Assembly: GCA_005239895.1 (NCBI GenBank)
Contig: SBBB01000025.1
Location: forward strand, 8,980-72,979
DNA: 64,000 nucleotides
From: a bacterium
Lineage (GTDB): Bacteria; Patescibacteriota; Patescibacteriia; SBBB01
Direction: 5' to 3'
Shown here piece by piece: positions 4,275-34,648 of the stretch (within the stretch, counting starts at the first letter, position 1; every line of letters starts with the position of its first letter). Made by a program: the position numbers and the translations under genes. The notes beneath the pieces are model-generated. The model saw only the letters and a list, made by a program, of their open reading frames with translations, searched no databases and had not been told where the DNA came from.

Positions 4275-5459
4275 ATGATTATTAAGAAAAATTTGGGGAA
4301 AATTAAAGAATTATTAACACGCGGCGTTAGTGAAGTTGTAATTTTAAAGGATTTAAAAGAAAAATTATTATCCGGCAAGTCCTTGCGTGTTAAGATTGGT
4401 ATTGATCCCACTAGTACTAATGTGCATATTGGGCGCGGGGCAACTTTATTAAAATTGCGAGATTTTCAAGAGCTAGGCCATAAAATAGTTTTGATTATCG
4501 GAGATTTTACGGGTGTTATTGGAGATAGTTCGGATAAAGAACAGGAGCGCCCGGCCTTATCCGCAGAAACTGTAAAAAATAACATGCGAACTTACATTGA
4601 TCAAATTAGCAGAATTTTAGACGTAAGTAAAATTGAGATACATTATAATTCCGAGTGGCTATCTAAATTAAACTATCATGAGATTAGTAAGCAAGCCAAT
4701 CAATTTTCATTGTCTGAATTTATGGCGCGTGAAAATATTAAGAAAAGATTTGAAGCTGGTAAGCGCGTATCTTTGTGTGAAGTTTTGTATCCTTTAATGC
4801 AGGGTTATGATAGCGTGGCGATTAAGGCTGATATTGAAATTGGTGGAACTGATCAAAGGTTTAATATGCTAGCCGGCAGGGTTTTGCAAAAATATTATAA
4901 TCAAGATTTGCAAAATATTATAATGTTGAATTTAATGCTGGGCACGGATGGACGAAAAATGAGTTCTAGTTGGGGCAATACTATAAATATTATGGACGAC
5001 CCTAAGGATATGTTTGGAAAAGTAATGAGTATGCCTGATCATATAATGTTAGATTATTTTATTTCTTGCACGCGTGTAAGTTTAGACAAAATTAAAAAAT
5101 ATAAAACAGCATTACAAGATACAAAAGTAAATCCTAAAGATATTAAAATGGATTTAGCGTACGAGATTACTAAATTATTTTCCGGAGAATTAAATGCCAA
5201 ACAGAGTCAAGAATATTTTATTTCAACTTTTCAGAACAAAGATTTGCCAGCAGATATTAAAGAGTGTAAATTAAATAATAAAAGTATTGTGGATGCGCTG
5301 ATAATTAGTGGTTTGGTTGATAGTAAATCTAAAGCTAAAACCTTGATTGGCCAGGGCGGTATAAAGATTGATAAACAGGTTGTAAAATCCATTGATGCAT
5401 TAGTAAAGTCTGGAAATGTAATTCAAAAGGGAAAAAGATTTTTTGTTAAAGTGATATAA
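4275..5459 (+). CDS. tyrS: Tyrosyl-tRNA synthetase.
   Basis: Class I aaRS N-terminus GIDPTSTNVHIGRGATLLKLRDFQELGHKIVLIIGDFTGVIGD, a KMSSS variant of KMSKS, and a C-terminal S4-like domain (GQGGIKIDKQVV). Confidence 0.85.
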   Translation: MIIKKNLGKIKELLTRGVSEVVILKDLKEKLLSGKSLRVKIGIDPTSTNVHIGRGATLLKLRDFQELGHKIVLIIGDFTGVIGDSSDKEQERPALSAETVKNNMRTYIDQISRILDVSKIEIHYNSEWLSKLNYHEISKQANQFSLSEFMARENIKKRFEAGKRVSLCEVLYPLMQGYDSVAIKADIEIGGTDQRFNMLAGRVLQKYYNQDLQNIIMLNLMLGTDGRKMSSSWGNTINIMDDPKDMFGKVMSMPDHIMLDYFISCTRVSLDKIKKYKTALQDTKVNPKDIKMDLAYEITKLFSGELNAKQSQEYFISTFQNKDLPADIKECKLNNKSIVDALIISGLVDSKSKAKTLIGQGGIKIDKQVVKSIDALVKSGNVIQKGKRFFVKVI

Positions 5460-5481
5460 AAGTTACTTGTATCTCTTATCA

Positions 5482-5553
5482 GGATGGGTGGCTGAGTGGT
5501 CGAAAGCGGCACACTGCTAACGTGTTAGGGTCTAAAAAGCCCTCGCGGGTTCG
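5482..5553 (+). pseudogene. Truncated duplicate of tRNA-Ser(GCU). The 5' ~72 nt are present, through the anticodon and variable arm to the 5' side of the T-arm; the 3' part is missing.
   Basis: Bases 5482-5553 are near-identical to 5920-5991 of the intact tRNA (GGATGGGTGGCTGAGTGGTCGAAAGCGGCACACTGCTAACGTG...GCGGGTTCG). The downstream sequence diverges into unrelated hairpins. No 3' T-stem or acceptor strand is present. Confidence 0.7.
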
Positions 5554-5653
5554 CCCTATCATCCGATAGGGCTTGCCCTATCGTATGATGGGGCGTCCTG
5601 TCGAATGACAGGACGAATCTATTTTATACGAAGAATTGGTGTAAATAAAAAGT

Positions 5654-5911
5654 ATGTATTTCGTTTATGTTCTTGCTTTAAATAATGGTGATTGTTATAT
5701 TGGATCTACTGAAAATTTGAAGCGTAGAATTGTTGAGCATAAATCGAACAAGGTTAATTCAACAATAAATAAAAGTTCAAAACTTATACATTATGAAGTG
5801 TATAAGCTTAAAAGCGATGCTTTAAGAAGAGAGAAATTTCTTAAAACAACTGAAGGCAAAAGATTGTTGAGGCAACAAATACGTGATATATTAAAACAAA
5901 ATAAGACGTAA
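5654..5911 (+). CDS. Small GIY-YIG nuclease-domain protein.
   Basis: MYFVYVLALNNGDCYIGSTENLKRRIVEHKS contains the GIY-YIG and conserved R/E/H core. The protein is 85 aa. Confidence 0.7.
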   Translation: MYFVYVLALNNGDCYIGSTENLKRRIVEHKSNKVNSTINKSSKLIHYEVYKLKSDALRREKFLKTTEGKRLLRQQIRDILKQNKT

Positions 5912-5919
5912 AAGTGAAA

Positions 5920-6007
5920 GGAAGGGTGGCTGAGTGGTCGAAAGCGGCACACTGCTAACGTGTTAGGGTCTAAAAAGCCCTCGCGGGTTCGAATCCCGCC
6001 CCTTCCG
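5920..6007 (+). tRNA. tRNA-Ser (anticodon GCU), type II with a long variable arm.
   Basis: Acceptor stem GGAAGGG/CCCTTCC with G73. D-arm GCT-GAGTGGTCGAA-AGC. Anticodon loop CTGCTAA. Variable arm AGGG..CCCT. T-arm GCGGG-TTCGAAT-CCCGC. Confidence 0.85.
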
Positions 6008-6012
6008 CCTTC

Positions 6013-6063
6013 GTCACGACGTAGCTTTAGCGAAGTCGGACTTCGCCAAATCTACGTCGTGAC
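6013..6063. repeat. Strong nested stem-loop immediately 3' of tRNA-Ser.
   Basis: A 12-bp perfect inverted repeat (GTCACGACGTAG...CTACGTCGTGAC) encloses an inner hairpin GCGAAGTCGGACTTCGC. The GAAGTCGGAC(T/C)TC core recurs at 10781 and 34538. Confidence 0.7.
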
Positions 6064-6132
6064 TACGGCGTGACGCAGTCCGCCTGGTCGAGCGAAAGCG
6101 GGCTATATTCAGAGTTAAAGCAATGAATAATT

Positions 6133-6366
6133 ATGTATTATGTTTACTCTCTAGAATGTAAAGATGGTTATTATATCGGATGTACAGATAACTTGAAAAA
6201 CAGGCTTTTAAGACATAAAAAAGGATACATACCTGCAACAAAAGATAGATTGCCAATAAAACTTGATTTTTATATAGCCTTGCAAAATAAATATAAGGCT
6301 TTTGAATTTGAAAAATACCTTAAGTCTGGTTCAGGAAGAGCTTTTTTAAATAAACATTTTATATAA
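6133..6366 (+). CDS. Small GIY-YIG nuclease-domain protein (second copy).
   Basis: MYYVYSLECKDGYYIGCTDNLKNRLLRHKKG. Confidence 0.7.
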   Translation: MYYVYSLECKDGYYIGCTDNLKNRLLRHKKGYIPATKDRLPIKLDFYIALQNKYKAFEFEKYLKSGSGRAFLNKHFI

Positions 6367-6386
6367 TTTAAAACATAGTAAATAAT

Positions 6387-6578
6387 ATGGAAAATGAAAT
6401 AATTTATATGTGCGATGGAACTTGCAAGGGTGTATCTAAAGAGCCTGTAAATTGCGGTGATCCAAACTGTAATTTGTATCAAAAACCACTTAAGAAACAT
6501 GCGCAATGCGAATCTTGTGCTACAGCTTCATTAAAAGACAACCAAACCCATGCTTGTCCAAATTGCCAAGCGCTTTGA
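6387..6578 (+). CDS. Cysteine-rich small protein with 10 Cys in 63 aa, probably metal-binding.
   Basis: Cysteine pairs in MCDGTCKG...CGDPNC...CESC...CPNC. A good coding stretch lies between the GIY-YIG gene and tag. Confidence 0.4.
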   Translation: MENEIIYMCDGTCKGVSKEPVNCGDPNCNLYQKPLKKHAQCESCATASLKDNQTHACPNCQAL

Positions 6579-6584
6579 GAATCT

Positions 6585-6611
6585 ATGTTTAGTACTCGGA
6601 GTACTAAACAT
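6585..6611. repeat. 27-bp perfect palindrome ATGTTTAGTACTCGGAGTACTAAACAT, a member of the ATGTTTRG...CYAAACAT family.
   Basis: Seen directly. The arms match those at 16083, 26100, 34525, 36231 and 61890. Confidence 0.8.
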
Positions 6612-6641
6612 TAATTAATCATTTCTTTTAATAAAAGAATT

Positions 6642-7247
6642 ATGGTAAGTTCAAAAATAAAGGTTGTAAACCGTTGTTCTTGGTCAGGTGAAAATAGTCT
6701 GATGATTAAATATCATGATGAAGAGTGGGGTGTGCCAGTGTACGATGATCGTAAACTTTTTGAATTTTTGGTTTTGGAAAGTGCGCAAGCTGGTCTTAGT
6801 TGGCAAACAATTCTTAATAAACGAGAAAATTATCGCAAAGCATTTAGTGGTTTTGATGTTAAGAAAATTGCTCGTTACGGATCACAAGACATAAAGAGAT
6901 TGATTTTAGATTCTGGCATTGTTCGCAATCGTTTAAAAATTGCTTCCGTAATTCAAAACACAAAAATGTTTTTAAATATTCAAAAAGAATTTGGTTCTTT
7001 TAATAAATATATTTGGAAGTTTATTGATGGTAAAATTATTAATAATAAGATCAAGTCTCAAAAAGATATTCCCGTGGCTAGCAATGAGTCGCGTAATATG
7101 AGTAAAGATTTATTAAAACGCGGTTTTAAATTTATTGGCCCTACGATTTGTTATGCTTTTATGCAAGCCGTCGGCATGGTAAATGATCATGAAATTAAAT
7201 GTTTTAGATATAATGTAGTGATAGGCATACCAAAAATTAAATCTTAG
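6642..7247 (+). CDS. tag: DNA-3-methyladenine glycosylase I.
   Basis: YHDEEWGVPVYDDRKLFEFLVLESAQAGLSWQTILNKRENYRKAF is the classic Tag signature. Confidence 0.8.
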   Translation: MVSSKIKVVNRCSWSGENSLMIKYHDEEWGVPVYDDRKLFEFLVLESAQAGLSWQTILNKRENYRKAFSGFDVKKIARYGSQDIKRLILDSGIVRNRLKIASVIQNTKMFLNIQKEFGSFNKYIWKFIDGKIINNKIKSQKDIPVASNESRNMSKDLLKRGFKFIGPTICYAFMQAVGMVNDHEIKCFRYNVVIGIPKIKS

Positions 7248-7413
7248 TATAATTTGCGTGTTTTAAATACTGTCTTTAGTAGTGGATTATGCGTGGCACT
7301 GTATTTGGTATTAGTGTTTGACATGTATAAAAGCGTTGTGTTATATTTAAATCATGGTAGTTTGTTGTTCCGACTTGACAATTCGACTGTGAACATTTTA
7401 ACAAGGAGGTACT

Positions 7414-8004
7414 ATGTCAGTAGAAAATGGATTGCAAGAGTATAACGGTAGGTGTGTTTTCTTAAATGGCATGTGGTATTTACAAGTAAAGAAGGACCTG
7501 TGGATTGATATAATACACTTGGCATCAATTGTTTTTAAATCTTTGAACAGTAAAAAGATTAAGACAAGTTTTAACTGTGAGCAGGCTTTAATTGAAGCAG
7601 ATAGTACGGGCAATCAAATCTTGACATATCAAGAAACTAGTTTTGGTTGGCAGGTTGATCATGGAATGCTTCTAACACATATCAATACAGTAGCGAGAGT
7701 ACTGTATAATATATTTGTACGCATTAAAGTTAAGCCAGGATTGCATTTTAGTATTACGGCCAATCCCCTGCCGAATGAACCAATTCATTATATAGCGATG
7801 CTGGATTCGTCAGATAGTGTAAATGGTATATTCATACCAAAACCTGATCGTGACAATAATCGTATATGTAAAGCTCGAAATATTTTTGAAGCATGTGTAT
7901 ACTTAAAAGGTGACAAATGTTTTAAATTTACTCCAATTGGTTTAGAGTGCTTTGAGACTCGAAGTGGCATTGCTGGTACCTGTCTACTCAAAGCGTTAGT
8001 ATGA
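7414..8004 (+). CDS. Hypothetical protein, paralog A of a tandem pair.
   Basis: Strong RBS AAGGAGGT. Begins MSV...GR..LW and ends C.YLKGDKCFKFT...SGIAGTCLLK, which are the parts shared with 8044-8610. Confidence 0.5.
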   Translation: MSVENGLQEYNGRCVFLNGMWYLQVKKDLWIDIIHLASIVFKSLNSKKIKTSFNCEQALIEADSTGNQILTYQETSFGWQVDHGMLLTHINTVARVLYNIFVRIKVKPGLHFSITANPLPNEPIHYIAMLDSSDSVNGIFIPKPDRDNNRICKARNIFEACVYLKGDKCFKFTPIGLECFETRSGIAGTCLLKALV

Positions 8005-8043
8005 GTAGTTAATAATCCGACTTTTTTAAAAAAGGAGGTAGGT

Positions 8044-8610
8044 ATGTCAGTAAAAGAACAGGATCAAATCTATTGTGGTAGGTATTATATTTCTGCAGAC
8101 AAGGGTCTGTGGTCCTTGCACACTGGTGTAGAAATGATAAATGTAGCAGAATTGATAAAAAAGTCTTTATATTTATTTCATGAGAAGCATATTGCGTATG
8201 GTTGCAATCGGTATGATGGGTTTTGGATCAAGGTAGATCCTAAATATCGCGACATATTAAGATACAAAGAAACCGCTAAAGATGGTTTTCAGGTTGTTCC
8301 TAGCGACTTGTTTGATCACATTCAGCTGACTATGTATTGGCTTCATAACAGATTAATATATATTATGTTTGGTGAGGGATATTTCAGTATCATTGCCAAT
8401 CAGAATGAGGAGGTTCATTCTGTGTCTATGAGCGAGGATGGGTTCGTGCCTGTGTCTCTAGAAGATCAGGCTGGTATATGTTTTAGTAAGGGTTTTACCT
8501 GTGTATATTTAGAAAATGGTAATTGCCGTAAATATACAAGTACAAAAAAAGAGCTTCTGTCTATGTTTGAAAAAAGTGGAATTATTGGTACTTGTGTGTT
8601 AAAAAAATAG
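8044..8610 (+). CDS. Hypothetical protein, paralog B of a tandem pair.
   Basis: RBS AAGGAGGT. Begins MSV, has SIIAN, CVYLENGNCRKYT and SGIIGTCVLKK matching 7414-8004. Confidence 0.5.
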   Translation: MSVKEQDQIYCGRYYISADKGLWSLHTGVEMINVAELIKKSLYLFHEKHIAYGCNRYDGFWIKVDPKYRDILRYKETAKDGFQVVPSDLFDHIQLTMYWLHNRLIYIMFGEGYFSIIANQNEEVHSVSMSEDGFVPVSLEDQAGICFSKGFTCVYLENGNCRKYTSTKKELLSMFEKSGIIGTCVLKK

Positions 8611-8643
8611 GATAATATTTATTATTTAATAAAAATATTGCGT

Positions 8644-8684
8644 ATGGGTGCTTTTTTGTTTCCAAGAGCACCCATTAATGTTTT
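8644..8684 (+). terminator. Intrinsic terminator after paralog B.
   Basis: 9-bp stem ATGGGTGCT...AGCACCCAT followed by TAATGTTTT. Confidence 0.5.
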
Positions 8685-8775
8685 AAAAACAAATAATTTT
8701 GTCACTATTTTGATTTTCATAATTTTGTAGAGTATAATTATAATGTAGATATTTTTAAATTATTTAAATTTTAGT

Positions 8776-9108
8776 ATGGCTACGATTGAAGATTTTCAAA
8801 AATTAGATATTAGGGTTGGTAAAATTATGGATGTTGAAGAATTACCAAATGCTAAATACACTACACATAAGCTTACGATTGATTTTGGTGAAGAGATTGG
8901 TAAAAAAGTTTCTGGCGCTCGCGTTATTAGGTACACTAAAGATCAATTAATTGGTAAGCTTATTTTAGGTGTAGTTAATTTCCCCAATAGACAAATTGGC
9001 AAATTAAATTCTGAAGTATTGACCCTAGGTGTGCCAGACGCGAACAAAGAGTGTATTTTAATTTCACCAGATAGTAATGATGTTGTTATTGGTAGCAAAC
9101 TTTATTAA
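8776..9108 (+). CDS. tRNA-binding protein (CsaA/Trbp111/EMAP-like domain).
   Basis: FQKLDIRVGKI is the hallmark of the tRNA-binding OB domain also found at the MetRS C-terminus. Confidence 0.75.
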   Translation: MATIEDFQKLDIRVGKIMDVEELPNAKYTTHKLTIDFGEEIGKKVSGARVIRYTKDQLIGKLILGVVNFPNRQIGKLNSEVLTLGVPDANKECILISPDSNDVVIGSKLY

Positions 9109-9135
9109 ATAACAAAAATAGACTAAAAGTTTTTC

Positions 9136-9163
9136 TTGACTTACATATTGATTTGGTTATAAT
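9136..9163 (+). promoter_or_regulatory. Sigma-70-like promoter for a leaderless antitoxin-toxin transcript.
   Basis: TTGACT, a 16-nt spacer, then TATAAT. The ATG at 9173 lies ~10 nt after the -10 box, leaving no room for a Shine-Dalgarno. Confidence 0.45.
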
Positions 9164-9172
9164 ATATATTAT

Positions 9173-9427
9173 ATGGTTAGTTATATAACAAAATCAAAGA
9201 GTGTTATTACTCTTTCTAAAGAGAAATATTTACGTTTAAAACAAGAGGCTGAAGCCTATCGAATTATGGTTGCTAAAGTATTTGAGTTACCACTTAGGGA
9301 CCAGGTTGATGCAGTTATAGCAGATTTTAAAGCTACAGATCTTTATACCAAAGAATTTTTAATGGATTTAAAAGATGGTTTAAACAAATCTTCATACTCT
9401 AAGAAGTATGCAAATAAAACCCATTAG
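9173..9427 (+). CDS. Putative antitoxin, small and helical. It overlaps the downstream toxin gene by 20 nt.
   Basis: Position and size only; no recognisable antitoxin motif. Confidence 0.3.
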   Translation: MVSYITKSKSVITLSKEKYLRLKQEAEAYRIMVAKVFELPLRDQVDAVIADFKATDLYTKEFLMDLKDGLNKSSYSKKYANKTH

Positions 9428-9662
9428 AAAAGATATTGAAATGATGCTTGATAAACATGAGCTGAGGCGTAAGTGGCATAAGGCTAAATTACTATTTAGC
9501 ATTAATATTCGTCACCCCTCTTTGCATACCGAATTGCTTGAGCCTCATTGGCGTGGTATATATTCTTTTAGACTTGATAATAAATATAGAGCTTTATTTT
9601 TTATTACCGAAGGTCAGGCTGAAATTTTTAAAATTACTAAACATTATAAGAAATTAGATTAG
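9408..9662 (+). CDS. RelE/ParE-superfamily toxin-like protein.
   Basis: The C-terminal pattern P..G..S.R+...YR++F........I..I..HY (HWRGIYSFRLDNKYRALFFITEGQAEIFKITKHY) matches RelE/ParE/YoeB-type toxins. Confidence 0.5.
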   Translation: MQIKPIRKDIEMMLDKHELRRKWHKAKLLFSINIRHPSLHTELLEPHWRGIYSFRLDNKYRALFFITEGQAEIFKITKHYKKLD

Positions 9663-9697
9663 GTTTGTGATTTATATTTTTTTTTGAATATTTTTTT

Positions 9698-10221
9698 ATG
9701 AAAATATTTGTAATACGACACGGTCAAACTGAATTAAACGCAAAAAATCTCATTACTGGGCATATTGATGATGTTTTAACACCAAAAGGCATTAATCAGG
9801 CTAAAAATGCTGTACAATTTTTACCAAAAACGATTAAACGAATTTATTCGTCTTCTCTTAAGAGAGCCAAACAAATTGCTGAAATTATAAATCAAGAATT
9901 AAAAGCTCCGCTCACCTTTCATGATGAACTAAAAGAAGTTAATTTTGGAGTTTTGGGTGGAACGCCCTATTTAGATGAATATAAAAAACGACATAGAATG
10001 CTTGATTACGACTGGAGGCCATCTGGGGAAAGTTTTGAGGACGTAAAAACCAGGGTTGCAGCTTTTCTAAAAAAATTAAGAATGAGCATAAGAGCGAAGA
10101 AATATTAATAGTAGCTCATGGGGTAATTATTCGCCTTCTACATTTTCTAGAATTTAATAAACCCTTTGGAGACATTGAAAATACTGCTCTCCATAGTTTT
10201 GATTTAGATAAGATATTTAAA
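9698..10221 (+). pseudogene. Histidine phosphatase family protein (PGAM-like) with a frameshift at an A7 run.
   Basis: N-terminal RHGQTELN motif. Frame 2 ends at 10108. The conserved C-terminal EEILIVAHGVIIRLL continues in frame 1 from ~10081 to a stop at 10219-10221. An A7 homopolymer at 10068-10074 is the likely shift point. Confidence 0.55.
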
Positions 10222-10229
10222 TAAAATAT

Positions 10230-10682
10230 ATGAATGTAGAAAAGATAATTAGGGAGTATTTATCACAAGTAATTCATTTATCGCTTGGAACTTGTAAAGA
10301 TAATCAGCCGTGGGTTTCAGAAGTTCATTTTGCTTATGATAATGATCTCAACCTTTATTTTCGTTCCACAATAAATCGTAGGCATAGTATAGAAATTGCA
10401 TCCAATCCAAATGTTGCAGGAAATATTATTACTCAACACCAAATCAACGAAAAACCTCGTGGTGTTTATTTTGAAGGTATAGCTGAGCGTTTAGTTAATA
10501 TTGATGAAAATCACCCTGCATATGTTCTATACTGCGAGCGTTTTGACACTGGGCTTGAAATATTAAGAGAGAGTAAAATAGATACTGGTCATCATTTTTA
10601 TAAAATTACAGTGAAAACTTTTTATTTATTTGATAGTCGTGAATCTCGTCCAAGTAAAAAATATGAACTTAAGTGGAATTAA
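10230..10682 (+). CDS. Pyridoxamine 5'-phosphate oxidase-like (FMN-binding split-barrel) family protein.
   Basis: Size and the pattern LGTCKDNQPWVSEVHFAYDNDLNLYFRSTINRRHSIEIASNPNVAG are typical of PNPOx-like/general stress protein 26 folds. Confidence 0.45.
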   Translation: MNVEKIIREYLSQVIHLSLGTCKDNQPWVSEVHFAYDNDLNLYFRSTINRRHSIEIASNPNVAGNIITQHQINEKPRGVYFEGIAERLVNIDENHPAYVLYCERFDTGLEILRESKIDTGHHFYKITVKTFYLFDSRESRPSKKYELKWN

Positions 10683-10822
10683 AATAAAGATTATTTTTTA
10701 ATTTGTTTCTTTTAGTCATTCCATCTCAGATCAGGTAGATGGTAAACTCCTACTGGAACCTAGTTTTATTATACATTACTTGGAAGTCGGACCTCCCAGT
10801 TGACAATCCCCGCCCCATTCCT

Positions 10823-10847
10823 GTCATTCCCGCGAAGGCGGGAATCC
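10823..10847. repeat. GC-rich inverted-repeat module GTCATTCCCGCGAAGGCGGGAATCC; left flank of the third GIY-YIG gene.
   Basis: Palindrome seen directly. The inverse copies GGGAATGACAGG sit at 11220-11228 and 11238-11249. Confidence 0.7.
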
Positions 10848-10859
10848 AGGTTATCAAAT

Positions 10860-11129
10860 ATGAACACCTATTATGTATATATTTTAACCAATAAAAGAAA
10901 TGGAACATTGTATATTGGTATAACTAATAATTTGGAACGACATGTGTCTGAACATCAGCTAGGATTAGTAAGTGGATTTACCAAACAATATGATATTTAT
11001 CATATTGTTTGGTACGAAACAACAAATAGTATAGAAGCAGCTCTACAAAGAGAAAAACAATTAAAAAATGGAACAGAAAATGGAAGCTTAACCTTATTGA
11101 AAAAGAGAATCCTCTTTGGAAAGATTTAA
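10860..11129 (+). CDS. Small GIY-YIG nuclease-domain protein (third copy).
   Basis: MNTYYVYILTNKRNGTLYIGITNNLERHVSEHQ. The listed ORF start at 10800 lies inside the repeat module, so the internal ATG at 10860 is preferred. Confidence 0.7.
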   Translation: MNTYYVYILTNKRNGTLYIGITNNLERHVSEHQLGLVSGFTKQYDIYHIVWYETTNSIEAALQREKQLKNGTENGSLTLLKKRILFGKI

Positions 11130-11199
11130 CTACAGGATTACAGTTGTAAGCTGTATATTAATATTCGTTGAAACAGTAGTTATCGGTGTACACGCTCTT

Positions 11200-11249
11200 G
11201 GATTCCCGACCAAGTCGGGAATGACAGGGGTAAACGCGGGAATGACAGG
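11200..11249. repeat. Right-flank inverted-repeat modules: GGATTCCCGACCAAGTCGGGAATGACAGG and CGCGGGAATGACAGG.
   Basis: These are reverse complements of the CCTGTCATTCCCG motif at 10821-10833. Confidence 0.7.
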
Positions 11250-11315
11250 AGAAGCAACGATATTTTATCATTCAGTGATGCATTATGACTTGAATTCAGC
11301 GAGTATAAGGATATA

Positions 11316-11382
11316 TTGTAACTAGAAGTTTTGTTATGGTATAATATTGGGTATTCCCAAATTGTGAGGGAAAAATCACAAT
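11316..11382 (+). promoter_or_regulatory. Promoter (-35 TTGTAA, -10 TATAAT) with a downstream operator-like palindrome ATTGTGA-N8-TCACAAT.
   Basis: TTGTAA at 11316-11321, an 18-nt spacer, TATAAT at 11340-11345. The palindrome at 11362-11382 lies between the -10 box and the RBS AGGAGA. Confidence 0.4.
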
Positions 11383-11404
11383 AAAAATGTTTTTAGGAGA
11401 AGCA

Positions 11405-11644
11405 ATGAAAAAAGATAAACAAGGATGTAAAAAGTGCCAAGTAGTCGTTATCATTAATGACGACGTGGTTGATTTTAAGGTGTACGGTGATCAACCTGAC
11501 GAGCTGCAAAAAACTTTCAAGAGGATATGTCAAAGAAAAATCATAGAGTTTACAGTGGCTTCTAATGCTACTAACAAAGATGTTGTAAAAGCTGCACGGA
11601 GTTCTCTAGAAGAGCATCTTACTGAAGATGAAATTGGATTCTAA
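11405..11644 (+). CDS. Small hypothetical protein (80 aa).
   Basis: RBS AGGAGA 5 nt upstream of the ATG at 11405; MKKDKQGCKKCQVVVIINDDV. Confidence 0.4.
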   Translation: MKKDKQGCKKCQVVVIINDDVVDFKVYGDQPDELQKTFKRICQRKIIEFTVASNATNKDVVKAARSSLEEHLTEDEIGF

Positions 11645-11762
11645 AAAAGAATAACAGTAATTTTTTAAAAGTTTTTGAAAATTTAGAGCCAGTCCTTAAG
11701 AGCCGTAGTCTTTATCAAATAGGATGTTCTCTGTTTTATCTTAATTATAGTAATTTATACGT

Positions 11763-11805
11763 GCCTGCCCTAACAATCAATATATAGGGCAGGCTTTGAT
11801 TTGTG
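11763..11805. terminator. Bidirectional terminator hairpin between convergent genes.
   Basis: 10-bp perfect stem GCCTGCCCTA...TAGGGCAGGC followed by TTTGATTTGTG. Confidence 0.55.
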
Positions 11806-11819
11806 CAATTGGGTTACAT

Positions 11820-12581
11820 TTAGATAGCGGGTTGCGGGTAAAACCTTTTGATTAATTGTGCTAATTTATTACAGTGGATTTGCCCCGGAGCAGTTGGCTT
11901 ATTACCTACGTAGGCGTAAGTCATGGGTGAACCTCCCAATACTGGAAAAAATACCCTAGACAAACTGCCAATCGGTCCCATGGCAATGGGTAGTAGTCTG
12001 TGTTTTTTATTAGTCAGGGTGAATTTGATTAACCTTTGAATATCGCTGTGGTTTTTTACTAATGTTGCTATCTTAACCATGTGAGCACTAGCAGTGCGCG
12101 CTTCCTTAAAGATGCGATTTAATTCCGCGATAGATGGCGTTCCATCAAAATTGTGGTAAGAAATGATTACTTTTTTCATGCTACAGTCGCACGAAGCGAT
12201 CAAAGTTCTTGACCTCTTTTTTGTTGATTCGTTTTGTATAGTTGATAGCTCGATGTCAATTATATTGACTTCAGAAGCTATCTCTTGAAAAAGTTCAAGT
12301 CGTTGTGTTTCTGATAGACCCCAACTACCGCCTTCTGTTTTAGATCTGATAGTAGCAATACTTGGATAACCTTTAAACTGATTCAAGACCCTTAAGACAT
12401 GTTCAGTCTTAAAGGATGTAAAATGATCGATTCGCCACTCTATGATATCAAATTTAGCAGATTCAATTAGAGCTTGATCAGTTGAGTCGTCTATTGAAAT
12501 AACAATTTTTGGTATTTCATCTCGTCCAATTCTTCCAGATCCAAACAGGCTTTCTAGGGTTTCACGTTTCTCTGTATTCAT
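11820..12581 (-). CDS. aroD: 3-dehydroquinate dehydratase, type I.
   Basis: IVISIDDS..DIIEWRIDHF, ATIRSKTEGG and VIISYHNFDGTP match the type I DHQase pattern. Confidence 0.7.
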   Translation of the reverse strand: MNTEKRETLESLFGSGRIGRDEIPKIVISIDDSTDQALIESAKFDIIEWRIDHFTSFKTEHVLRVLNQFKGYPSIATIRSKTEGGSWGLSETQRLELFQEIASEVNIIDIELSTIQNESTKKRSRTLIASCDCSMKKVIISYHNFDGTPSIAELNRIFKEARTASAHMVKIATLVKNHSDIQRLIKFTLTNKKHRLLPIAMGPIGSLSRVFFPVLGGSPMTYAYVGNKPTAPGQIHCNKLAQLIKRFYPQPAI

Positions 12582-12711
12582 CTCACACCTCCTAAAAGTT
12601 AATTTTTTTTACTTACTATTATAAGTAATATATATATTTATATTGATTTTGTCAAAGAGAGTATTTTCTGATAGTATAATTTAAGTATTTATTAAAAGTA
12701 TTTATTAAATT

Positions 12712-13674
12712 ATGACCAACCCGAAAACAGTTTTAGTTACAGGATGCGCTGGTTTTATTGGGAGCAATTTCGTACAGCAGTTTAAAAATCAATATCCTAA
12801 AACAAAAATTATTGGTATAGATAATTTTTCAACTGGTAGAAAAGATGCGCTGGATTCTTCGGTTATTTTTTATAGAGGATCAATTTTAGACGCCAAACTT
12901 TTAGACAAGATTTTTTTTACTCATAAACCCGAATATGTTTTTCATTTTGCAGCTTTGCCAAGGGTTTCTTATTCAGTTGAGCATCCTCGTCAAACGAGTG
13001 AAGTTAATATATTAGGAACAGTGGCTTTATTAGAAATGTCTAAAAAATATAAGGTCAAAAGGTTTATTTATTCTTCTACATCTGCTGTTTATGGTAATGC
13101 TAAGCAATTGCCAACCAAAGAATCAGAGAATCATCCTGATCCGAAATCTCCTTACGCAATTCAAAAATGTGCTGGCGAATATTTTTGTAAATTATTTAGT
13201 GAATTATTAGGGTTAGATACGGTTTGTTTGCGTTATTTCAATATTTTTGGACCCGGTCAGTATGGTGATTCACCCTATTCTACAGTTGTATCAGCTTGGT
13301 TAGAAGCTATCTATTTTCCAAAAAACAAAAAAGCTTTTATTGAAGGCGATGGTAATCAGTCCAGAGATTTCTCTTATGTAGATAATATAGTTTTAGCAAA
13401 TATTTTAGCCATGGAATCAAAAAAGGATTTAGGTGGTGAGATATTGAATATTTCTGATGGATGCAAAATAACGATTAATAAAATTAAAAAATTAATAGAA
13501 AAATATACACACCAAGAATTGATATTAGAAAAACGTCCGTCAAGATTGGGAGACGTGAGGCGTACTCAGGCTGATATTGTTAAAGCTAAAAAACTTTTAG
13601 GCTATAATCCGCAAGTAAATTTTGAGGAAGGGATTAAAAAAACCATTCAATGGTTTGAATTACGCAAGATATAA
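12712..13674 (+). CDS. NAD-dependent epimerase/dehydratase (UDP-sugar 4-epimerase/dehydratase family).
   Basis: GCAGFIGSN Rossmann motif; YxxxK catalytic pair in YAIQKCAGEY. Confidence 0.8.
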   Translation: MTNPKTVLVTGCAGFIGSNFVQQFKNQYPKTKIIGIDNFSTGRKDALDSSVIFYRGSILDAKLLDKIFFTHKPEYVFHFAALPRVSYSVEHPRQTSEVNILGTVALLEMSKKYKVKRFIYSSTSAVYGNAKQLPTKESENHPDPKSPYAIQKCAGEYFCKLFSELLGLDTVCLRYFNIFGPGQYGDSPYSTVVSAWLEAIYFPKNKKAFIEGDGNQSRDFSYVDNIVLANILAMESKKDLGGEILNISDGCKITINKIKKLIEKYTHQELILEKRPSRLGDVRRTQADIVKAKKLLGYNPQVNFEEGIKKTIQWFELRKI

Positions 13675-13693
13675 ATGATTTATTAGAGCTGTT

Positions 13694-14458
13694 TTACTCC
13701 AGAAAAAGTAACATATACATAGCGAGTAGTCCAGTTCCAATGCCAGCAATTTCAGGTATTAAATTTTTATTTTTTCCGTGTTTATGAAGTTCGGGTACGA
13801 GATCCGAGCTGGCAATATAAATAAATACTCCGGCTGCGAAGGGAATAATTTTAGGAATTAGTTGTTCGGAGAAAGATCCAAAAATAAGAACTAGTCCCGC
13901 GCCAGCGATAGCTGTAAGGGCCGACAATAAATTATATAAAAGAGCTGTACTTCTTTTAAATCCAGCGTAAATAAGTATTCCAAAGTCTCCAATTTCTTGA
14001 GGAATTTCATGAGCGATAATAGCAAGAGTGGTCGCTATTCCAACCTCAATACTTACAAGATAACTTACTCCTATAATAATTCCATCTAAAAAATTATGTA
14101 ATCCGTCGGAGATAAGGATCAAACTGGCAAGATGTTTTTGGGGTTGAACCTGTTCAGTTTGAATACATTGAATATCCACTGAATGATGATGCCATCTTAG
14201 AAATTTTTCAAGAAAAAAGAATAAAATTATACCTAAGATAATCAGGGCCGAGGTACTTGTGGTTTCATTTGAACTTTCGAACGACTTTGGAATGAGATGA
14301 AAAAACACATCACCGAGAAGAGCCCCAACTGCAAGTGGAACAAGAAATACTAAGGTTTTCATTAGTTGTTTTTGTTGAATAGATATAATAAATGTGCCTA
14401 GTAGCGAAATAAAACTTACAAGTAAAACGCTTCCCAAAATATAAGACGTAGTATCCAT
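13694..14458 (-). CDS. zupT: ZIP-family zinc transporter.
   Basis: HNFLDGIIIG and AHEIPQEIGDFGIL are ZupT hallmarks. Confidence 0.8.
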   Translation of the reverse strand: MDTTSYILGSVLLVSFISLLGTFIISIQQKQLMKTLVFLVPLAVGALLGDVFFHLIPKSFESSNETTSTSALIILGIILFFFLEKFLRWHHHSVDIQCIQTEQVQPQKHLASLILISDGLHNFLDGIIIGVSYLVSIEVGIATTLAIIAHEIPQEIGDFGILIYAGFKRSTALLYNLLSALTAIAGAGLVLIFGSFSEQLIPKIIPFAAGVFIYIASSDLVPELHKHGKNKNLIPEIAGIGTGLLAMYMLLFLE

Positions 14459-14464
14459 AATATA

Positions 14465-14481
14465 TTTAAAGATTCTTTAAA
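14465..14481. promoter_or_regulatory. 17-bp perfect palindrome TTTAAAGATTCTTTAAA, 7 nt upstream of the zupT start.
   Basis: Seen directly. Sitting in front of a metal transporter, it is a candidate metalloregulator operator. Confidence 0.3.
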
Positions 14482-14688
14482 TTTTTGATTTCATTATGAT
14501 TTTATAGTATTAAACTGTATAAGTCAATTTAAAATGTAAATTCAAGGTATATTTAGAGCGTATAATTAGGTATTGATATTTAAGGTGGTTTGTATTATGC
14601 TTTTTATAGGGTCTAGTTTGGGTAGTTGGGTTTTTGGATCACACTAAAATAGTAACATTCTAGAAGAAACTAGAAGAAAGGAGGTTTT

Positions 14689-15219
14689 GTGTTTTGGAAT
14701 CCAAAGGGTATTTTAGTAAGCGGAATATATATTCCCAATATATCAGATGCTGATTTGAGCATTAAGATATTAGGGAATCCGCCTGATCAATTCGGCAGTT
14801 TATCGCGTATGGTTTTTGAAATGGTTAGCCGCGGTGTTGCTGGTTCACTTCAAGATACAACTATTTATGGCAATTTTGGAAGTAAAACTTCCGATGAAAT
14901 GAAAGAATATATTTTAAAGAATATTGGGCTGGTGGTGCAGTTTCCACGCATACTTGATTGTATGTATGAAGATCAAAGAGAGCGTACACTGTGTCTGTTA
15001 GAAAGGATATTTTCTAGACACGTTGTCTATGATACGAAATATACAAATGTGACCGAAGAAATACACTCAGCAGTTGATAGGTTTAAGGATCATGGATGTA
15101 TGTTAATTTGTTATATTGCCGACAGGTCAAGCGTTAAATTATGTTTAGAAGCTTTAGAAAAGGCTAAATTAGACGGCATTGTTCCTTCGCAGCAAATGTG
15201 GTACCTTACCACACCTTAA
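14689..15219 (+). CDS. Hypothetical protein (GTG start).
   Basis: RBS AAGGAGG 4 nt upstream of the GTG; no recognisable domain. Confidence 0.35.
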   Translation: MFWNPKGILVSGIYIPNISDADLSIKILGNPPDQFGSLSRMVFEMVSRGVAGSLQDTTIYGNFGSKTSDEMKEYILKNIGLVVQFPRILDCMYEDQRERTLCLLERIFSRHVVYDTKYTNVTEEIHSAVDRFKDHGCMLICYIADRSSVKLCLEALEKAKLDGIVPSQQMWYLTTP

Positions 15220-15825: not shown

Positions 15826-16082
15826 ATTTTATTTAATAATATAGCATAAAATAATTTGGTGCAATATTTAGTATCTGTATTTAGTATGTTTAGTATGTAT
15901 TGTGGCTAACTATTCGCTATAGCGTAAACTTAGCCACACATTGCTTATCGTTTTTATTTAATATACTTACGCTTATTTTTTTGTTATTTCTAGCCCCTCT
16001 GGGCGAATGCCTGATCGTGGGTGGGAACGACAGAAAGAGAAACAGGAATGACAAAAACAGTATTTTATCCAAATGTGTAACT

Positions 16083-16143
16083 CCCTCAATGTTTAGGAGT
16101 TGAACTCCTAAACATTGAGTTGAACTCCTAAACATTGAGGGGC
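16083..16143. repeat. Palindromic element CCTCAATGTTTAGGAGTTGAACTCCTAAACATTGAGG with a 20-bp internal tandem duplication.
   Basis: TTGAACTCCTAAACATTGAG occurs twice in tandem. The core is identical to the palindrome at 61890-61918. Confidence 0.8.
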
Positions 16144-19395: not shown

Positions 19396-19605
19396 TCTTC
19401 TTTCCTGTCATTCTCGCGTTCAGTCTTCGTCCAGCCTTTGTAGCCATAGGCTACTATGGCGGAGTAGGCTAGCCGTAGCTACTACGGTCGCTTACGCTTC
19501 ATAGTTTCAGCGACGGAGCGCGAACTAGGCAAGGCGGGAATCCAGGAGCGAATTCAATTAAATACAACCTGGATCCCCGGGTCAAGCCCGAGGATGACAG
19601 AAAGG
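19396..19605. repeat. MITE-like GC-rich element bounded by imperfect inverted termini (CCTGTCATTCTCGCG ... CGAGGATGACAGAAAGG).
   Basis: GC-rich internal palindromes (GTAGCCATAGGCTAC, GCTAGCCGTAGCTACTACGG) sit in an AT-rich background. The termini belong to the TGTCATTC/GAATGACA family. Confidence 0.45.
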
Positions 19606-19826: not shown

Positions 19827-20498
19827 TTAAAAAGATGTATTCAGGCTTGGTCCTGGTAATTGTAAGCCCGAAGGAGGAGGCTGGAGAGAGTCTTGAAGGT
19901 TAACACTTGGTATTTGTGGACCTGGTACTGTGGTTTGAAGTCCTCCAGCGCCAGGTAGAGTGTTTAGGGTTGGATTAGAATTTAATTGTACAGCTGGCGG
20001 TGAACTAAAAAAGTTTCGTACAGAATCAACGCCTCTATTAAAAGCACCAGAAGCAGTATCACCAATACTACCAACCCTACCAGTACCCCCTGCTGATCCA
20101 TATATTCCCGTGCCCTGAACACTTCTTAGTATAAATGTACTAATTGAATAAGCTGAAAGTATAATAGCAGCTCCAATAGCGCTATTAATCATTAAGTTTT
20201 TAGCTTTTTTGATTTGTTCGTCATTGCCGCCCGCTGTCATCCAAAGATAACCAGCAAATACAATTAATACTAAACATATAATACCCAATAAACTTAAAGC
20301 AACTCTAATAAGTAGGGCTATTGTAGATGGTAATGATGGTGTAGCTGTTCCTGTTGTATATCCAGCATGACTACCCCCACCTTCAAGATAGCCCCTTATC
20401 TCATCTCGCGTTGATCCCAATACATTAAAAACAGGAATTATTAATAGTAGTATTATTATAAATGTATAACTAAATTTAATAAACAGGTTTTTATACAT
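19827..20498 (-). CDS. VirB2/TrbC-like (T4SS-type) pilin family paralog 1, with a long Gly/Pro/Ser-rich C-terminal tail.
   Basis: Signal peptide, then two hydrophobic helices around FAGYLWMTAGGNDEQIKKAKNLMINSAIGAAIIL. The C-terminal ~100 aa are low-complexity G/S/P/Q. Confidence 0.55.
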   Translation of the reverse strand: MYKNLFIKFSYTFIIILLLIIPVFNVLGSTRDEIRGYLEGGGSHAGYTTGTATPSLPSTIALLIRVALSLLGIICLVLIVFAGYLWMTAGGNDEQIKKAKNLMINSAIGAAIILSAYSISTFILRSVQGTGIYGSAGGTGRVGSIGDTASGAFNRGVDSVRNFFSSPPAVQLNSNPTLNTLPGAGGLQTTVPGPQIPSVNLQDSLQPPPSGLQLPGPSLNTSF

Positions 20499-20500
20499 AT

Positions 20501-20872
20501 TTATAATAATTTATCTATTAATTTACCTATCACAAAACTACTTATAACATACGCGCCTAAAACAATAATAACACCAATTATGCCATTAACCAATAAACCC
20601 TGGGCTTTTTTCACTTGTTCGTCATTGCCGCCCGCTGTCATCCAAAGATAACCAGCAAATACAACCAAGACTAAGAACACAATACCCAATAAACTTAGAA
20701 CTATCTGAATTACGTTCCCTATTATAACAACTGGATGTTTGGGTTCTTGAGGGCTAACGTCGCTACCAATTAAACGATCCAAGGGGTGTAATGGGAGTGC
20801 GTATGTTAAGGTACTAAATAACATAGAACAAAGCATTATTAATAAAAATAAGTATAAAAGACGGTTTTTCAT
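20501..20872 (-). CDS. VirB2/TrbC-like pilin family paralog 2.
   Basis: VFAGYLWMTAGGNDEQVKKAQGLLVNGIIGVIIVLGAY. Confidence 0.55.
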   Translation of the reverse strand: MKNRLLYLFLLIMLCSMLFSTLTYALPLHPLDRLIGSDVSPQEPKHPVVIIGNVIQIVLSLLGIVFLVLVVFAGYLWMTAGGNDEQVKKAQGLLVNGIIGVIIVLGAYVISSFVIGKLIDKLL

Positions 20873-34061: not shown

Positions 34062-34496
34062 AAATTTTGTTTCGTTATAACTTCACAAAATTAAGATTAA
34101 GATGAAGATGAATAATACATATATTGTACAATATATTTTAGAGCAAAATTTTTCCTCATACACATCCTAACACTTAATACATTTTAGGTTTGTTTTTGAA
34201 CAGCCCTCAAAATCCTGAGTAACTAGTAATCAGTAACTAGTAATTTGGGTAGTTATACTTTTATCATTCTGTTTTTCTTTGTTATTTCCGCGTCTTTTTT
34301 GTCATTCCTGTGTTTTTCTGTCATTCCCTTCCCCGATCAGGTCGAGAGTAAACTCCGGTGGCCAGAAGTGTGTTCGTTCATAACAAATGTAATCCTGTAA
34401 TTAAATCTTTTTAAAACAATAATACTCTTTCTACATAAAATTAAGTTGCCATTTCTTTTGTTGATTAAAATATATATTTGAATACACACCTTTTCT

Positions 34497-34588
34497 ACTT
34501 AGTCGCCTTGCCACTAAGTAGACTGGAAGTGTTTGGAGGTCGGACTTCCAAACATTAATAATATTACTTAGTGGCAAGGCGACTAAGT
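34497..34588. repeat. Composite nested repeat: an inverted pair of the 23-bp ACTTAGTGGCAAGGCGACTAAGT element flanking a GGAAGTGTTTGGAGGTCGGACTTCCAAACATT palindrome.
   Basis: CTTAGTCGCCTTGCCACTAAGT at 34497-34519; palindrome at 34525-34556; ACTTAGTGGCAAGGCGACTAAGT at 34566-34588. Confidence 0.8.
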
Positions 34589-34597
34589 GCTGTTACA

Positions 34598-34648
34598 GTC
34601 ATTCCCGCCTGCGCAGGAATGACAAATAAGACGCGGGAATGACAGTGG
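34598..34648. repeat. Juxtaposed inverted-repeat termini GTCATTCCCGCCTGCGCAGGAATGAC plus GCGGGAATGACAGTGG (solo-type, no cargo).
   Basis: Same motif family as the flanks of the GIY-YIG gene at 10860. Confidence 0.7.

Follow-up and report, generated by a model that had tools for sequence, protein, structure and literature searches.

A frameshifted GIY-YIG nuclease gene between inverted hairpins: a probable Ssn/NTS module in an AT-rich bacterial genome

The 64-kb stretch of contig SBBB01000025.1 analyzed here (the window) carries a 430-bp unit, at positions 10820-11249, in which a small GIY-YIG gene lies between inverted hairpins. Judged from its sequence, this unit is very probably an Ssn/NTS module, i.e., an SsnA-type gene flanked by two inverted copies of its cognate hairpin repeat. 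As such, it is a frameshifted member of a known family, of a kind already published in 2025. A first-pass annotation of the window had described a unit of about 430 bp with inverted termini around a single small nuclease gene, and all the sequence elements that it quoted were found in their places. The anatomy it proposed is right and general, as shown below for related loci. Its interpretation is only partly supported: the label "MITE" (miniature inverted-repeat transposable element) is wrong, and mobility of the unit is unproven.

The Ssn/NTS system was described by Chenal et al. (Nat Commun 2025; PMC11893778). In Neisseria meningitidis, SsnA (NMV_0044/NMB0047) has 94 aa in a single GIY-YIG domain (cd10448, GIY-YIG_unchar_3), without a separate DNA-binding domain. 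The NTS hairpin is defined as CGTCATTCCCGCGMAVGCGGGAATCYRG and includes the Neisseria dRS3 palindrome ATTCCC-N8-GGGAAT, and the Ssn-related motif (SRM) describes such hairpins more widely, by a degenerate pattern (PMC11893778). The enzymes of N. meningitidis, N. elongata, N. wadsworthii, and Wolbachia bind the hairpin only as single-stranded DNA (ssDNA), not as double-stranded DNA or RNA, and in one orientation only. These enzymes cleave a few nucleotides 5' of the hairpin with the help of Mg2+, and a conserved glutamate takes part along with the GIY-YIG tyrosines; each of the substitutions Y6A, Y17A, and E64A in N. meningitidis SsnA abolishes cleavage (PMC11893778). The authors delimited the family by the CDD assignment cd10448, a size of at most 150 aa, and a match to Neisseria SsnA with E < 1e-10 and at least 75% coverage; 42% of the Ssn homologs have an SRM on both sides. 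The N. meningitidis system reduces transformation by NTS-bearing DNA, and the authors noted that NTS-ssnA-NTS resembles an insertion sequence (IS) and hypothesized its domestication (PMC11893778).

When reconstructed across its frameshift, the protein encoded in the window has 96 aa, 85 of which align without gaps with the N. gonorrhoeae SsnA ortholog at 54% identity (BLASTP, E 1e-34). A tblastn search of a 7.3-Gb database with the ssnA-like protein gave E 2e-13. The protein is thus a homolog of Neisseria SsnA of similar size, and Pfam GIY-YIG is its only domain (E 1e-15). It also keeps the catalytic Tyr/Tyr/Glu, with Y7, Y18, and E65 aligning with Y6, Y17, and E64 of N. meningitidis SsnA. NTS/SRM hairpins lie within 500 bp of its gene on either side, the right copy missing the strict SRM at one position. 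The window contains two other GIY-YIG open reading frames (ORFs), at 5654-5911 and 6133-6366, with 34% and 26% identity to SsnA; no C-terminal motif and no NTS were found for either. Among the three GIY-YIG genes of the window, by sequence, only the third is an Ssn gene. As SsnA reference we used the N. gonorrhoeae ortholog from NZ_CP119142.1, the numbering of which reproduces Y6, Y17, and E64 of the paper. In that record (our locus L082, 1195-1476) the ATG is out of frame with the GIY-YIG frame, and the gonococcal gene may be disrupted at its N-terminus; the record itself, a PLSDB "plasmid" of 2.17 Mb, is evidently a mislabelled chromosome.

The left element, CCTGTCATTCCCGCGAAGGCGGGAATCCAGG, includes a 28-nt hairpin (10822-10849) that ends 10 nt before the ATG at 10860. 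It agrees with the published NTS consensus at 27 of 28 positions and also fits the published SRM pattern, which matches twice in the window compared to 0.01 times in shuffled sequences. The right element reads GGATTCCCGAC-caa-GTCGGGAATGAC and shares its GTCATTCCC...GGGAATCC arms with the left hairpin; GGATTCCCGACCAAGTCGGGAATGACAGG occupies 11200-11228, and TCGGGAATGACAGG ends at 11228. Its stem carries compensatory changes from GCG/CGC to GAC/GTC, and its spacing is ATTCCC-N9-GGGAAT. Both flanking hairpins are stable as ssDNA, with folding energies of -12.1 kcal/mol (z -5.7) on the left and -8.5 kcal/mol (z -3.5) on the right. Of the two inverse motif copies that the first-pass annotation had placed downstream of the gene, both are present, and the first turned out to be a complete inverted hairpin rather than just a half-site. 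Their distance from the ORF, given as about 100 bp, has to be corrected for the frameshift: the right hairpin begins 48 nt past the reconstructed stop codon. An Rfam scan of 5300-11500 matched tRNA alone, so no known RNA family explains the hairpins. A promoter and terminator scan of 10600-11450 returned nothing above chance and no terminator-like site consisting of a hairpin and a T-run.

The half-site motif GTCATTCCCGC, allowing up to one mismatch, has nine matches in the window compared to 0.27 expected from shuffles. Two of the matches, at 20220 and 20621, were rejected as false positives, being chance look-alikes inside paralogous coding sequences. There, GTCATTGCCGC (20220-20230 and 20621-20631) lies in two adjacent paralogous genes for small membrane proteins and encodes, on the coding strand, a GGNDE peptide inside a common WMTAGGNDEQ motif; these matches are not repeats.

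By homology, the cuts expected of an Ssn enzyme are one in the top strand immediately left of 10822 and one in the bottom strand immediately right of 11228, each at an outer edge of the unit. Other NTS copies in the genome, such as those at 19404-19599 and 34595-34646, would be further targets whenever they become single-stranded during replication, transformation, or conjugation. A role in ssDNA handling and gene flow of the host may be envisaged from the restriction of NTS-bearing transforming DNA in Neisseria.

The likeness to Neisseria SsnA/NTS comprises the same family of single-domain GIY-YIG proteins of about 95 aa, the near-identical motif, its presence on both sides of the gene, and further intergenic copies. 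Several observations weigh against this identification. Parsing by hand shows one mismatch of the right hairpin to the strict SRM, namely an A where the fifth base of YYVSBRH has to be B; this hairpin has a 9-nt spacer and a GAC stem. The flanking NTS face inward in the window, (+) gene (-), which is opposite to the N. gonorrhoeae ssnA locus with (-) upstream and (+) downstream. The 64 kb hold a handful of NTS copies, whereas pathogenic Neisseria have hundreds, and NCBIfam contains no specific model for the Ssn family. Finally, disruption of the gene may have left this genome with a non-functional module. The genome also differs from Neisseria in being AT-rich (32% GC) and, as judged from the closest ssn homologs and the style of the genome, probably that of a member of the Patescibacteria (candidate phyla radiation, CPR). 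No mention of candidate phyla was found in the main text of PMC11893778, and the finding puts Ssn/NTS in such a genome. The window unit as such is an ordinary, broken instance of the published system, and its value is comparative.

As encoded, the ORF spans 10860-11129 and specifies 89 aa, with a premature stop at 11129. The -1 frame from 11060 reads IKKWNRKWKLNLIEKENPLWKDLTTGLQL* and ends at 11149; the conserved C-terminus KKWNRKWKLNLIEKENPLWKDL lies in this frame (11060-11149), and the same C-terminus is found in every close homolog. Intact homologs at 60-78% identity have 94-100 aa (up to 78% identity among those of 97-100 aa), and the reading frame is intact in 76 of 78 homologous genes. 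The frameshifted product itself is also recorded from an NCBI contig of 194,557 bp. Over 6230-10849 and 10823-15081, the window is matched at 100% identity by two Logan contigs of SRR6943130, including the A6 run in which one A was lost. The lesion is therefore present in an independent assembly and is not the artefact of one assembler. In the zero frame, the run reads A_AAA_AAT, a slippery heptamer, and a -1 slip at this site would give the full-length protein with LKNW instead of LKKW. We consider programmed frameshifting at the A-run unlikely because 76 of the 78 homologs encode a single intact ORF, and simple mutation is the more likely account. This ssnA-like copy is probably a recent pseudogene, unless -1 slippage rescues some full-length protein. 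Exact-protein look-ups with the frameshifted ORF (89- and 109-aa forms) and with the downstream 85-aa ORF found no match, and those with the flanking PNPOx and aroD proteins matched only the SRR6943130 Logan contigs that are identical to the window.

There is about an even chance that the module in the window is a dead relic as a whole, the frameshift having killed ssn and left the flanking and dispersed NTS as neutral remnants. Through the 1-nt deletion, the protein is cut short and loses the conserved KKWNRKWK...NPxWxDL C-terminus; the deletion recurs in the second assembly and, as the intact homologs show, is no feature of the family. Several NTS of the window are also degenerate or split by inserts. 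Pointing the other way, the lesion is recent, as the catalytic residues are preserved and the frame has no defect other than the single indel; the flanking NTS are near consensus (27/28 on the left), slippage at the heptamer would restore the full-length protein, and a further intact ssn copy may lie outside the 64-kb window.

To compare the architecture with that of related loci, we scanned one genome per species, which yielded at least 528 relatives, and kept the best 80 (56-76% aa identity). These loci span Patescibacteria, Planctomycetota (Brocadia, Jettenia), Bacteroidota, Pseudomonadota, Cloacimonadota, Omnitrophota, Atribacterota, Thermodesulfobacteriota, Verrucomicrobiota, and others. 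A (+) hairpin (GTCATTCCC...GGGAATC) lies within 300 bp upstream of the gene in 62 of the 80 loci and a (-) NTS within 300 bp downstream in 65; 53 loci are bracketed by both. Typically, 8-16 nt lie between the upstream hairpin and the start codon, and overlap of the downstream hairpin with the stop codon is frequent. Conservation in the bracketed loci starts abruptly at (T)GTCAT and stops at CAG. Half-sites are stacked on the outer, 5' cleavage side of a full NTS, on the same strand, in 27 cases compared to 2 on the inner side. Their spacing on the cleavage side is 17-25 nt, and as many as 8 copies may follow one another at a period of 19-22 nt; such polar GTCATTCCCGC arrays occur in L019 (3300-3460), L040, L046, L034, L063, L069, and L082 (1060-1110). 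Both the right end of the window unit (11217/11238, 21 nt apart) and the gonococcal locus obey the same polarity, a description of which was not found in the main text of PMC11893778. Across the related loci the module thus behaves as a discrete cassette with sharp ends, and half-sites pile up with fixed polarity on its cut side.

These data also bear on the scenario that the first-pass annotation had named as fatal to its own proposal, a generic palindrome of the repetitive extragenic palindromic (REP) type that is unlinked to the gene. This scenario is excluded: in the 80 loci, NTS density is 3.97/kb beside the gene and 0.075/kb more than 500 bp away, an approximately 50-fold difference, and 53 loci are bracketed. 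That the hairpins are generic REP-like palindromes or terminators lying near a GIY-YIG gene by coincidence is accordingly very improbable. The window does have NTS-like hairpins away from any GIY-YIG gene (at 19404-19599 and 34595-34646, with relics at about 16.0 and 34.3 kb), and the genome has several other families of GC-rich palindromes. Against coincidence, the motif is conserved at the nucleotide level and in fixed orientation around homologous genes in many phyla, no terminator-like hairpin with a T-run was detected, and binding and cleavage of NTS by SsnA have been published (PMC11893778).

If the unit is an Ssn/NTS module, it may in addition be an autonomous mobile cassette, now or in the recent past, IS-like or homing-like, with the gene-less doublets as its non-autonomous derivatives (cf. 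MITEs and REPINs); we regard this as possible, though doubtful. In such a cassette, Ssn would act on single-stranded DNA and nick both inverted hairpins at their outer 5' edges, one cut on each strand; replication or repair by the host would then place copies of the unit, or of gene-less NTS doublets, at new sites. Several features of the related loci are consistent with this. Homology between copies begins at the T before GTCAT and does not extend past the first outer half-site. Between species, the DNA identity of the copies is 83-92% over 300-440 bp (L019/L043, 92% over 416 bp; L043/L046, 88%; L030/L048, 87%; L028/L040, 85%). Their flanks, compared by tblastx over about 2.8 kb per side, show no similarity, in contrast to the full synteny of the control pair L014/L022. 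Paralogous copies within a genome are 77-81% identical, over 284-363 bp only. Distributed among L005-L079 are 27 gene-less (+)(-) doublets with gaps of mostly 18-23 nt, the window having its own at 19404-19599; (-)(+) doublets number 11. Moreover, hairpins are nested in NTS loops (e.g., at the left ends of L025, L030, and L071), half-sites stack on the cleavage side, and the IS-like architecture had been remarked by the Ssn authors (PMC11893778). The independent Logan assembly breaks exactly at the left NTS: two contigs (L081 and L095) end and begin on the 27-nt NTS core 10823-10849. As the contigs meet there, the assembly graph branches at this core, which means either that NTS k-mers are repeated in the sample or that the junction varies within the population.

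A Rhizobium plasmid offers a further comparison. In pRheCIAT894e, ssn and a cluster of NTS lie beside a gene for a carboxy-terminal processing peptidase, and the orthologous intergenic region of Rhizobium sp. BT04 is without them, as expected of a mobile cassette. The left flank is non-syntenic due to an IS4 element, and no clean insertion boundary can be defined. As a separate observation, the ssn gene of this plasmid (Rhizobium sp. CIAT894, L096 1270-2470) is associated with the SRM variant GTCATCCCAGGGCTTGACCCTGGGATCC in the same (+) gene (-) geometry and is followed by about 700 bp of repeated (+)/(-) doublets that adjoin an IS4 transposase.

Other results speak against mobility. Target-site duplications, for which the first-pass annotation had proposed to look, are visible neither in the window nor in the 53 bracketed loci, and the shared T before GTCAT is part of the inverted repeat. 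A search of metagenome contigs with the upstream neighbor and a comparison of Rhizobium plasmids gave no clean empty site; the PNPOx-like ORF (10230-10682) had only 12 relatives in the metagenome contigs, at no more than 61% aa identity and without shared synteny, NTS, or ssn, which made the metagenome search uninformative. GIY-YIG enzymes hydrolyze DNA and are not known for strand transfer. The predicted cuts would fall on opposite strands, unlike those of IS200/IS605. Replicons carry one or two copies, orthologous positions are kept between related species (L014/L022, L050/L080), and the paralogs are old (about 80% identity), with no recent burst. In the window, the 10 nt between NTS and ATG leave no room for an internal promoter, and none above chance was detected; 50,697 phage records contained no homolog.

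The evidence thus favors mobility of the unit without amounting to proof, so that we treat it as a hypothesis, and a genuine, previously unrecognized class of mobile cassettes driven by a GIY-YIG ssDNA nuclease is a tentative proposal that we hold to be less probable than its negation. If it were true, it would explain the unit-confined homology in unrelated contexts as well as the REPIN-like doublets with their spacer of about 20 nt and the hairpins nested in NTS loops. The polar half-site arrays with their period of about 21 nt would then be repair footprints, and the frameshifted window copy would be a decaying element. The related loci thereby bear on a question left by the Ssn authors, namely whether NTS-ssn-NTS is domesticated or an active mobile element and how NTS multiply. 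An answer would matter for the genome dynamics of symbionts and pathogens and for the choice of Ssn enzyme and site pairs as ssDNA tools.

Compared to established mobile elements, the Ssn/NTS unit fits no class well. It has the terminal inverted repeats of MITEs and insertion sequences (10820-10850 and 11197-11228) around a short stretch of 430 bp, and to this extent the description as MITE-like stands. We rejected the unit as a MITE because it contains a gene and shows no target-site duplication; it is also present once in the 64 kb, and related replicons have one or two copies, whereas MITEs are non-coding and multicopy. The gene-less NTS doublets fit this last property better than the unit does. 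A classical IS was rejected as well, since the gene encodes GIY-YIG as its only domain and no known transposase (DDE, HUH, serine, or tyrosine). The IS-typical occurrence of one unit in different contexts, with homology ending at the termini, is seen in the related loci and not in the window. The likeness to REP sequences with their REP-associated tyrosine transposases (RAYT) and to REPINs is in the arrangement: a low-copy gene bracketed by inverted extragenic hairpins that are recognized as ssDNA, and hairpins dispersed over the genome, often as inverted doublets with a short fixed spacer. TnpA_REP, however, is an IS200/IS605-like Y1 HUH tyrosine transposase with a covalent intermediate, whereas Ssn is a hydrolytic GIY-YIG nuclease; as the window encodes GIY-YIG and not Y1_Tnp, the likeness is architectural only. 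With the Neisseria dRS3 repeats and Neisseria intergenic mosaic elements (NIMEs) the left hairpin shares the identical core ATTCCC-N8-GGGAAT, and the intergenic mosaics of Neisseria may be compared with 34.06-34.78 kb of the window. dRS3 differs in being a 20-bp unoriented palindrome, whereas NTS is longer and oriented, and the right hairpin of the window has N9 instead of N8. The GIY-YIG fold is distantly shared with UPF0213/YhbQ proteins and with I-TevI; a sequence search of the PDB returned only the UPF0213 structure 1ZG2 (Bacillus halodurans BH0048) at E 7e-5. UPF0213 proteins are without the KKWNRxWKxxLIExxNPxWxDL C-terminus found in Ssn, and GIY-YIG homing endonucleases such as I-TevI have separate DNA-binding domains, cut double-stranded DNA, and are encoded in introns or by free-standing phage genes.

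Table 1. Positions of the ssnA-like gene, its flanking hairpins, and further NTS-related elements in the 64-kb window.
Feature	Position	Strand	Remarks
Degenerate relic, GTCATTCC half-site then GATCAGG	10707..10760	+	One of three repeat copies of about 60 bp (alignment)
Left NTS/SRM hairpin, CCTGTCATTCCCGCgaagGCGGGAATCCAGG	10820..10850	+	Recognized strand is the top strand
ssnA-like gene, single-domain GIY-YIG	10860..11149	+	96 aa reconstructed; broken by 1-nt deletion
A6 run, one A lost	11063..11068	+	Eight homologs have the A7 form TTA/CTA AAA AAA TGG at the same site
Right NTS variant, inverted	11197..11228	-	Minus strand reads CCTGTCATTCCCGACttgGTCGGGAATCCAAG
Extra NTS half-site CGCGGGAATGACAGG	11235..11249	-	21 nt outside the right NTS, same strand
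Other relic copies of about 60 bp	34296-34365; 15985-16060	+; -	GTCATTCC half-sites 21 nt apart
NTS with insert of about 115 nt in its loop (CCTGTCATTCTCGCG ... GGCGGGAATCCAGG)	19404..19550	+	Outer NTS stem closes the fold
NTS variant-like hairpin, TGTCATCCTCGGGCTTGACCCGGGGATCCAG on the minus strand	19569..19599	-	SRM match; -9.0 kcal/mol, z -3.7
Palindromic NTS half-site pair and third half-site (ACAGTCATTCCCGC ctgc GCAGGAATGAC ... GCGGGAATGACAGT)	34595..34646	.	

Besides the flanking hairpins, the window contains a gene-less head-to-head NTS doublet, a group of half-sites, and three degenerate relics (Table 1), all of which are intergenic. The doublet (19404-19599) is found 68 nt from tRNA-Arg(TCG), and about 19 nt separate its two members; the insert in the loop of the first member is itself rich in hairpins. 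The half-sites at 34595-34646 sit in a 700-bp intergenic palindrome mosaic downstream of tRNA-Arg(TCT). Just past the degenerate half-sites at 16020-16052, the stretch 16079-16142 contains GTTGAACTCCTAAACATTGAG in direct tandem, preceded by a partial inverse copy, CTCAATGTTTAGGAGTT.

A further palindrome, GGAAGTCGGACCTCC, had been assigned to the left side of the unit, with a core that recurs elsewhere. The palindrome exists and its core does recur, at 6032 and 34536, but it lies outside the unit and folds no better than shuffled sequence (z +0.7). The underlying motif GAAGTCGGAC (6032, 10783, and 34536; five matches compared to 0.81 expected) was rejected as a part of the unit, as none of the 80 related loci carries it. 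Its core GAAGTC-G-GACTTC occurs three times (6012-6068, 10782-10796, and 34497-34588) and is central in two long perfect inverted repeats, GTCACGACGTAG...CTACGTCGTGAC after tRNA-Ser and one with 24-nt arms at 34497/34565. The motif apparently represents a repeat family of its own, specific to this genome.

The region around tRNA-Ser(GCT) (5920-6009) has a structure of its own. At 5482-5554, the first approximately 72 nt of this tRNA gene are copied with one substitution; the copy ends inside the T-loop (GGTTCG|) and scores as a sub-threshold tRNA in Rfam (21.6 bits). Two GC-rich hairpins and the GIY-YIG ORF 5654-5911, which is not an Ssn gene, lie between the partial and the intact tRNA gene. 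The arrangement at 5482-6009 resembles a tRNA gene into which a GIY-YIG cassette of some 440 bp was inserted, the cassette bringing along a replacement for the 5' tRNA segment.

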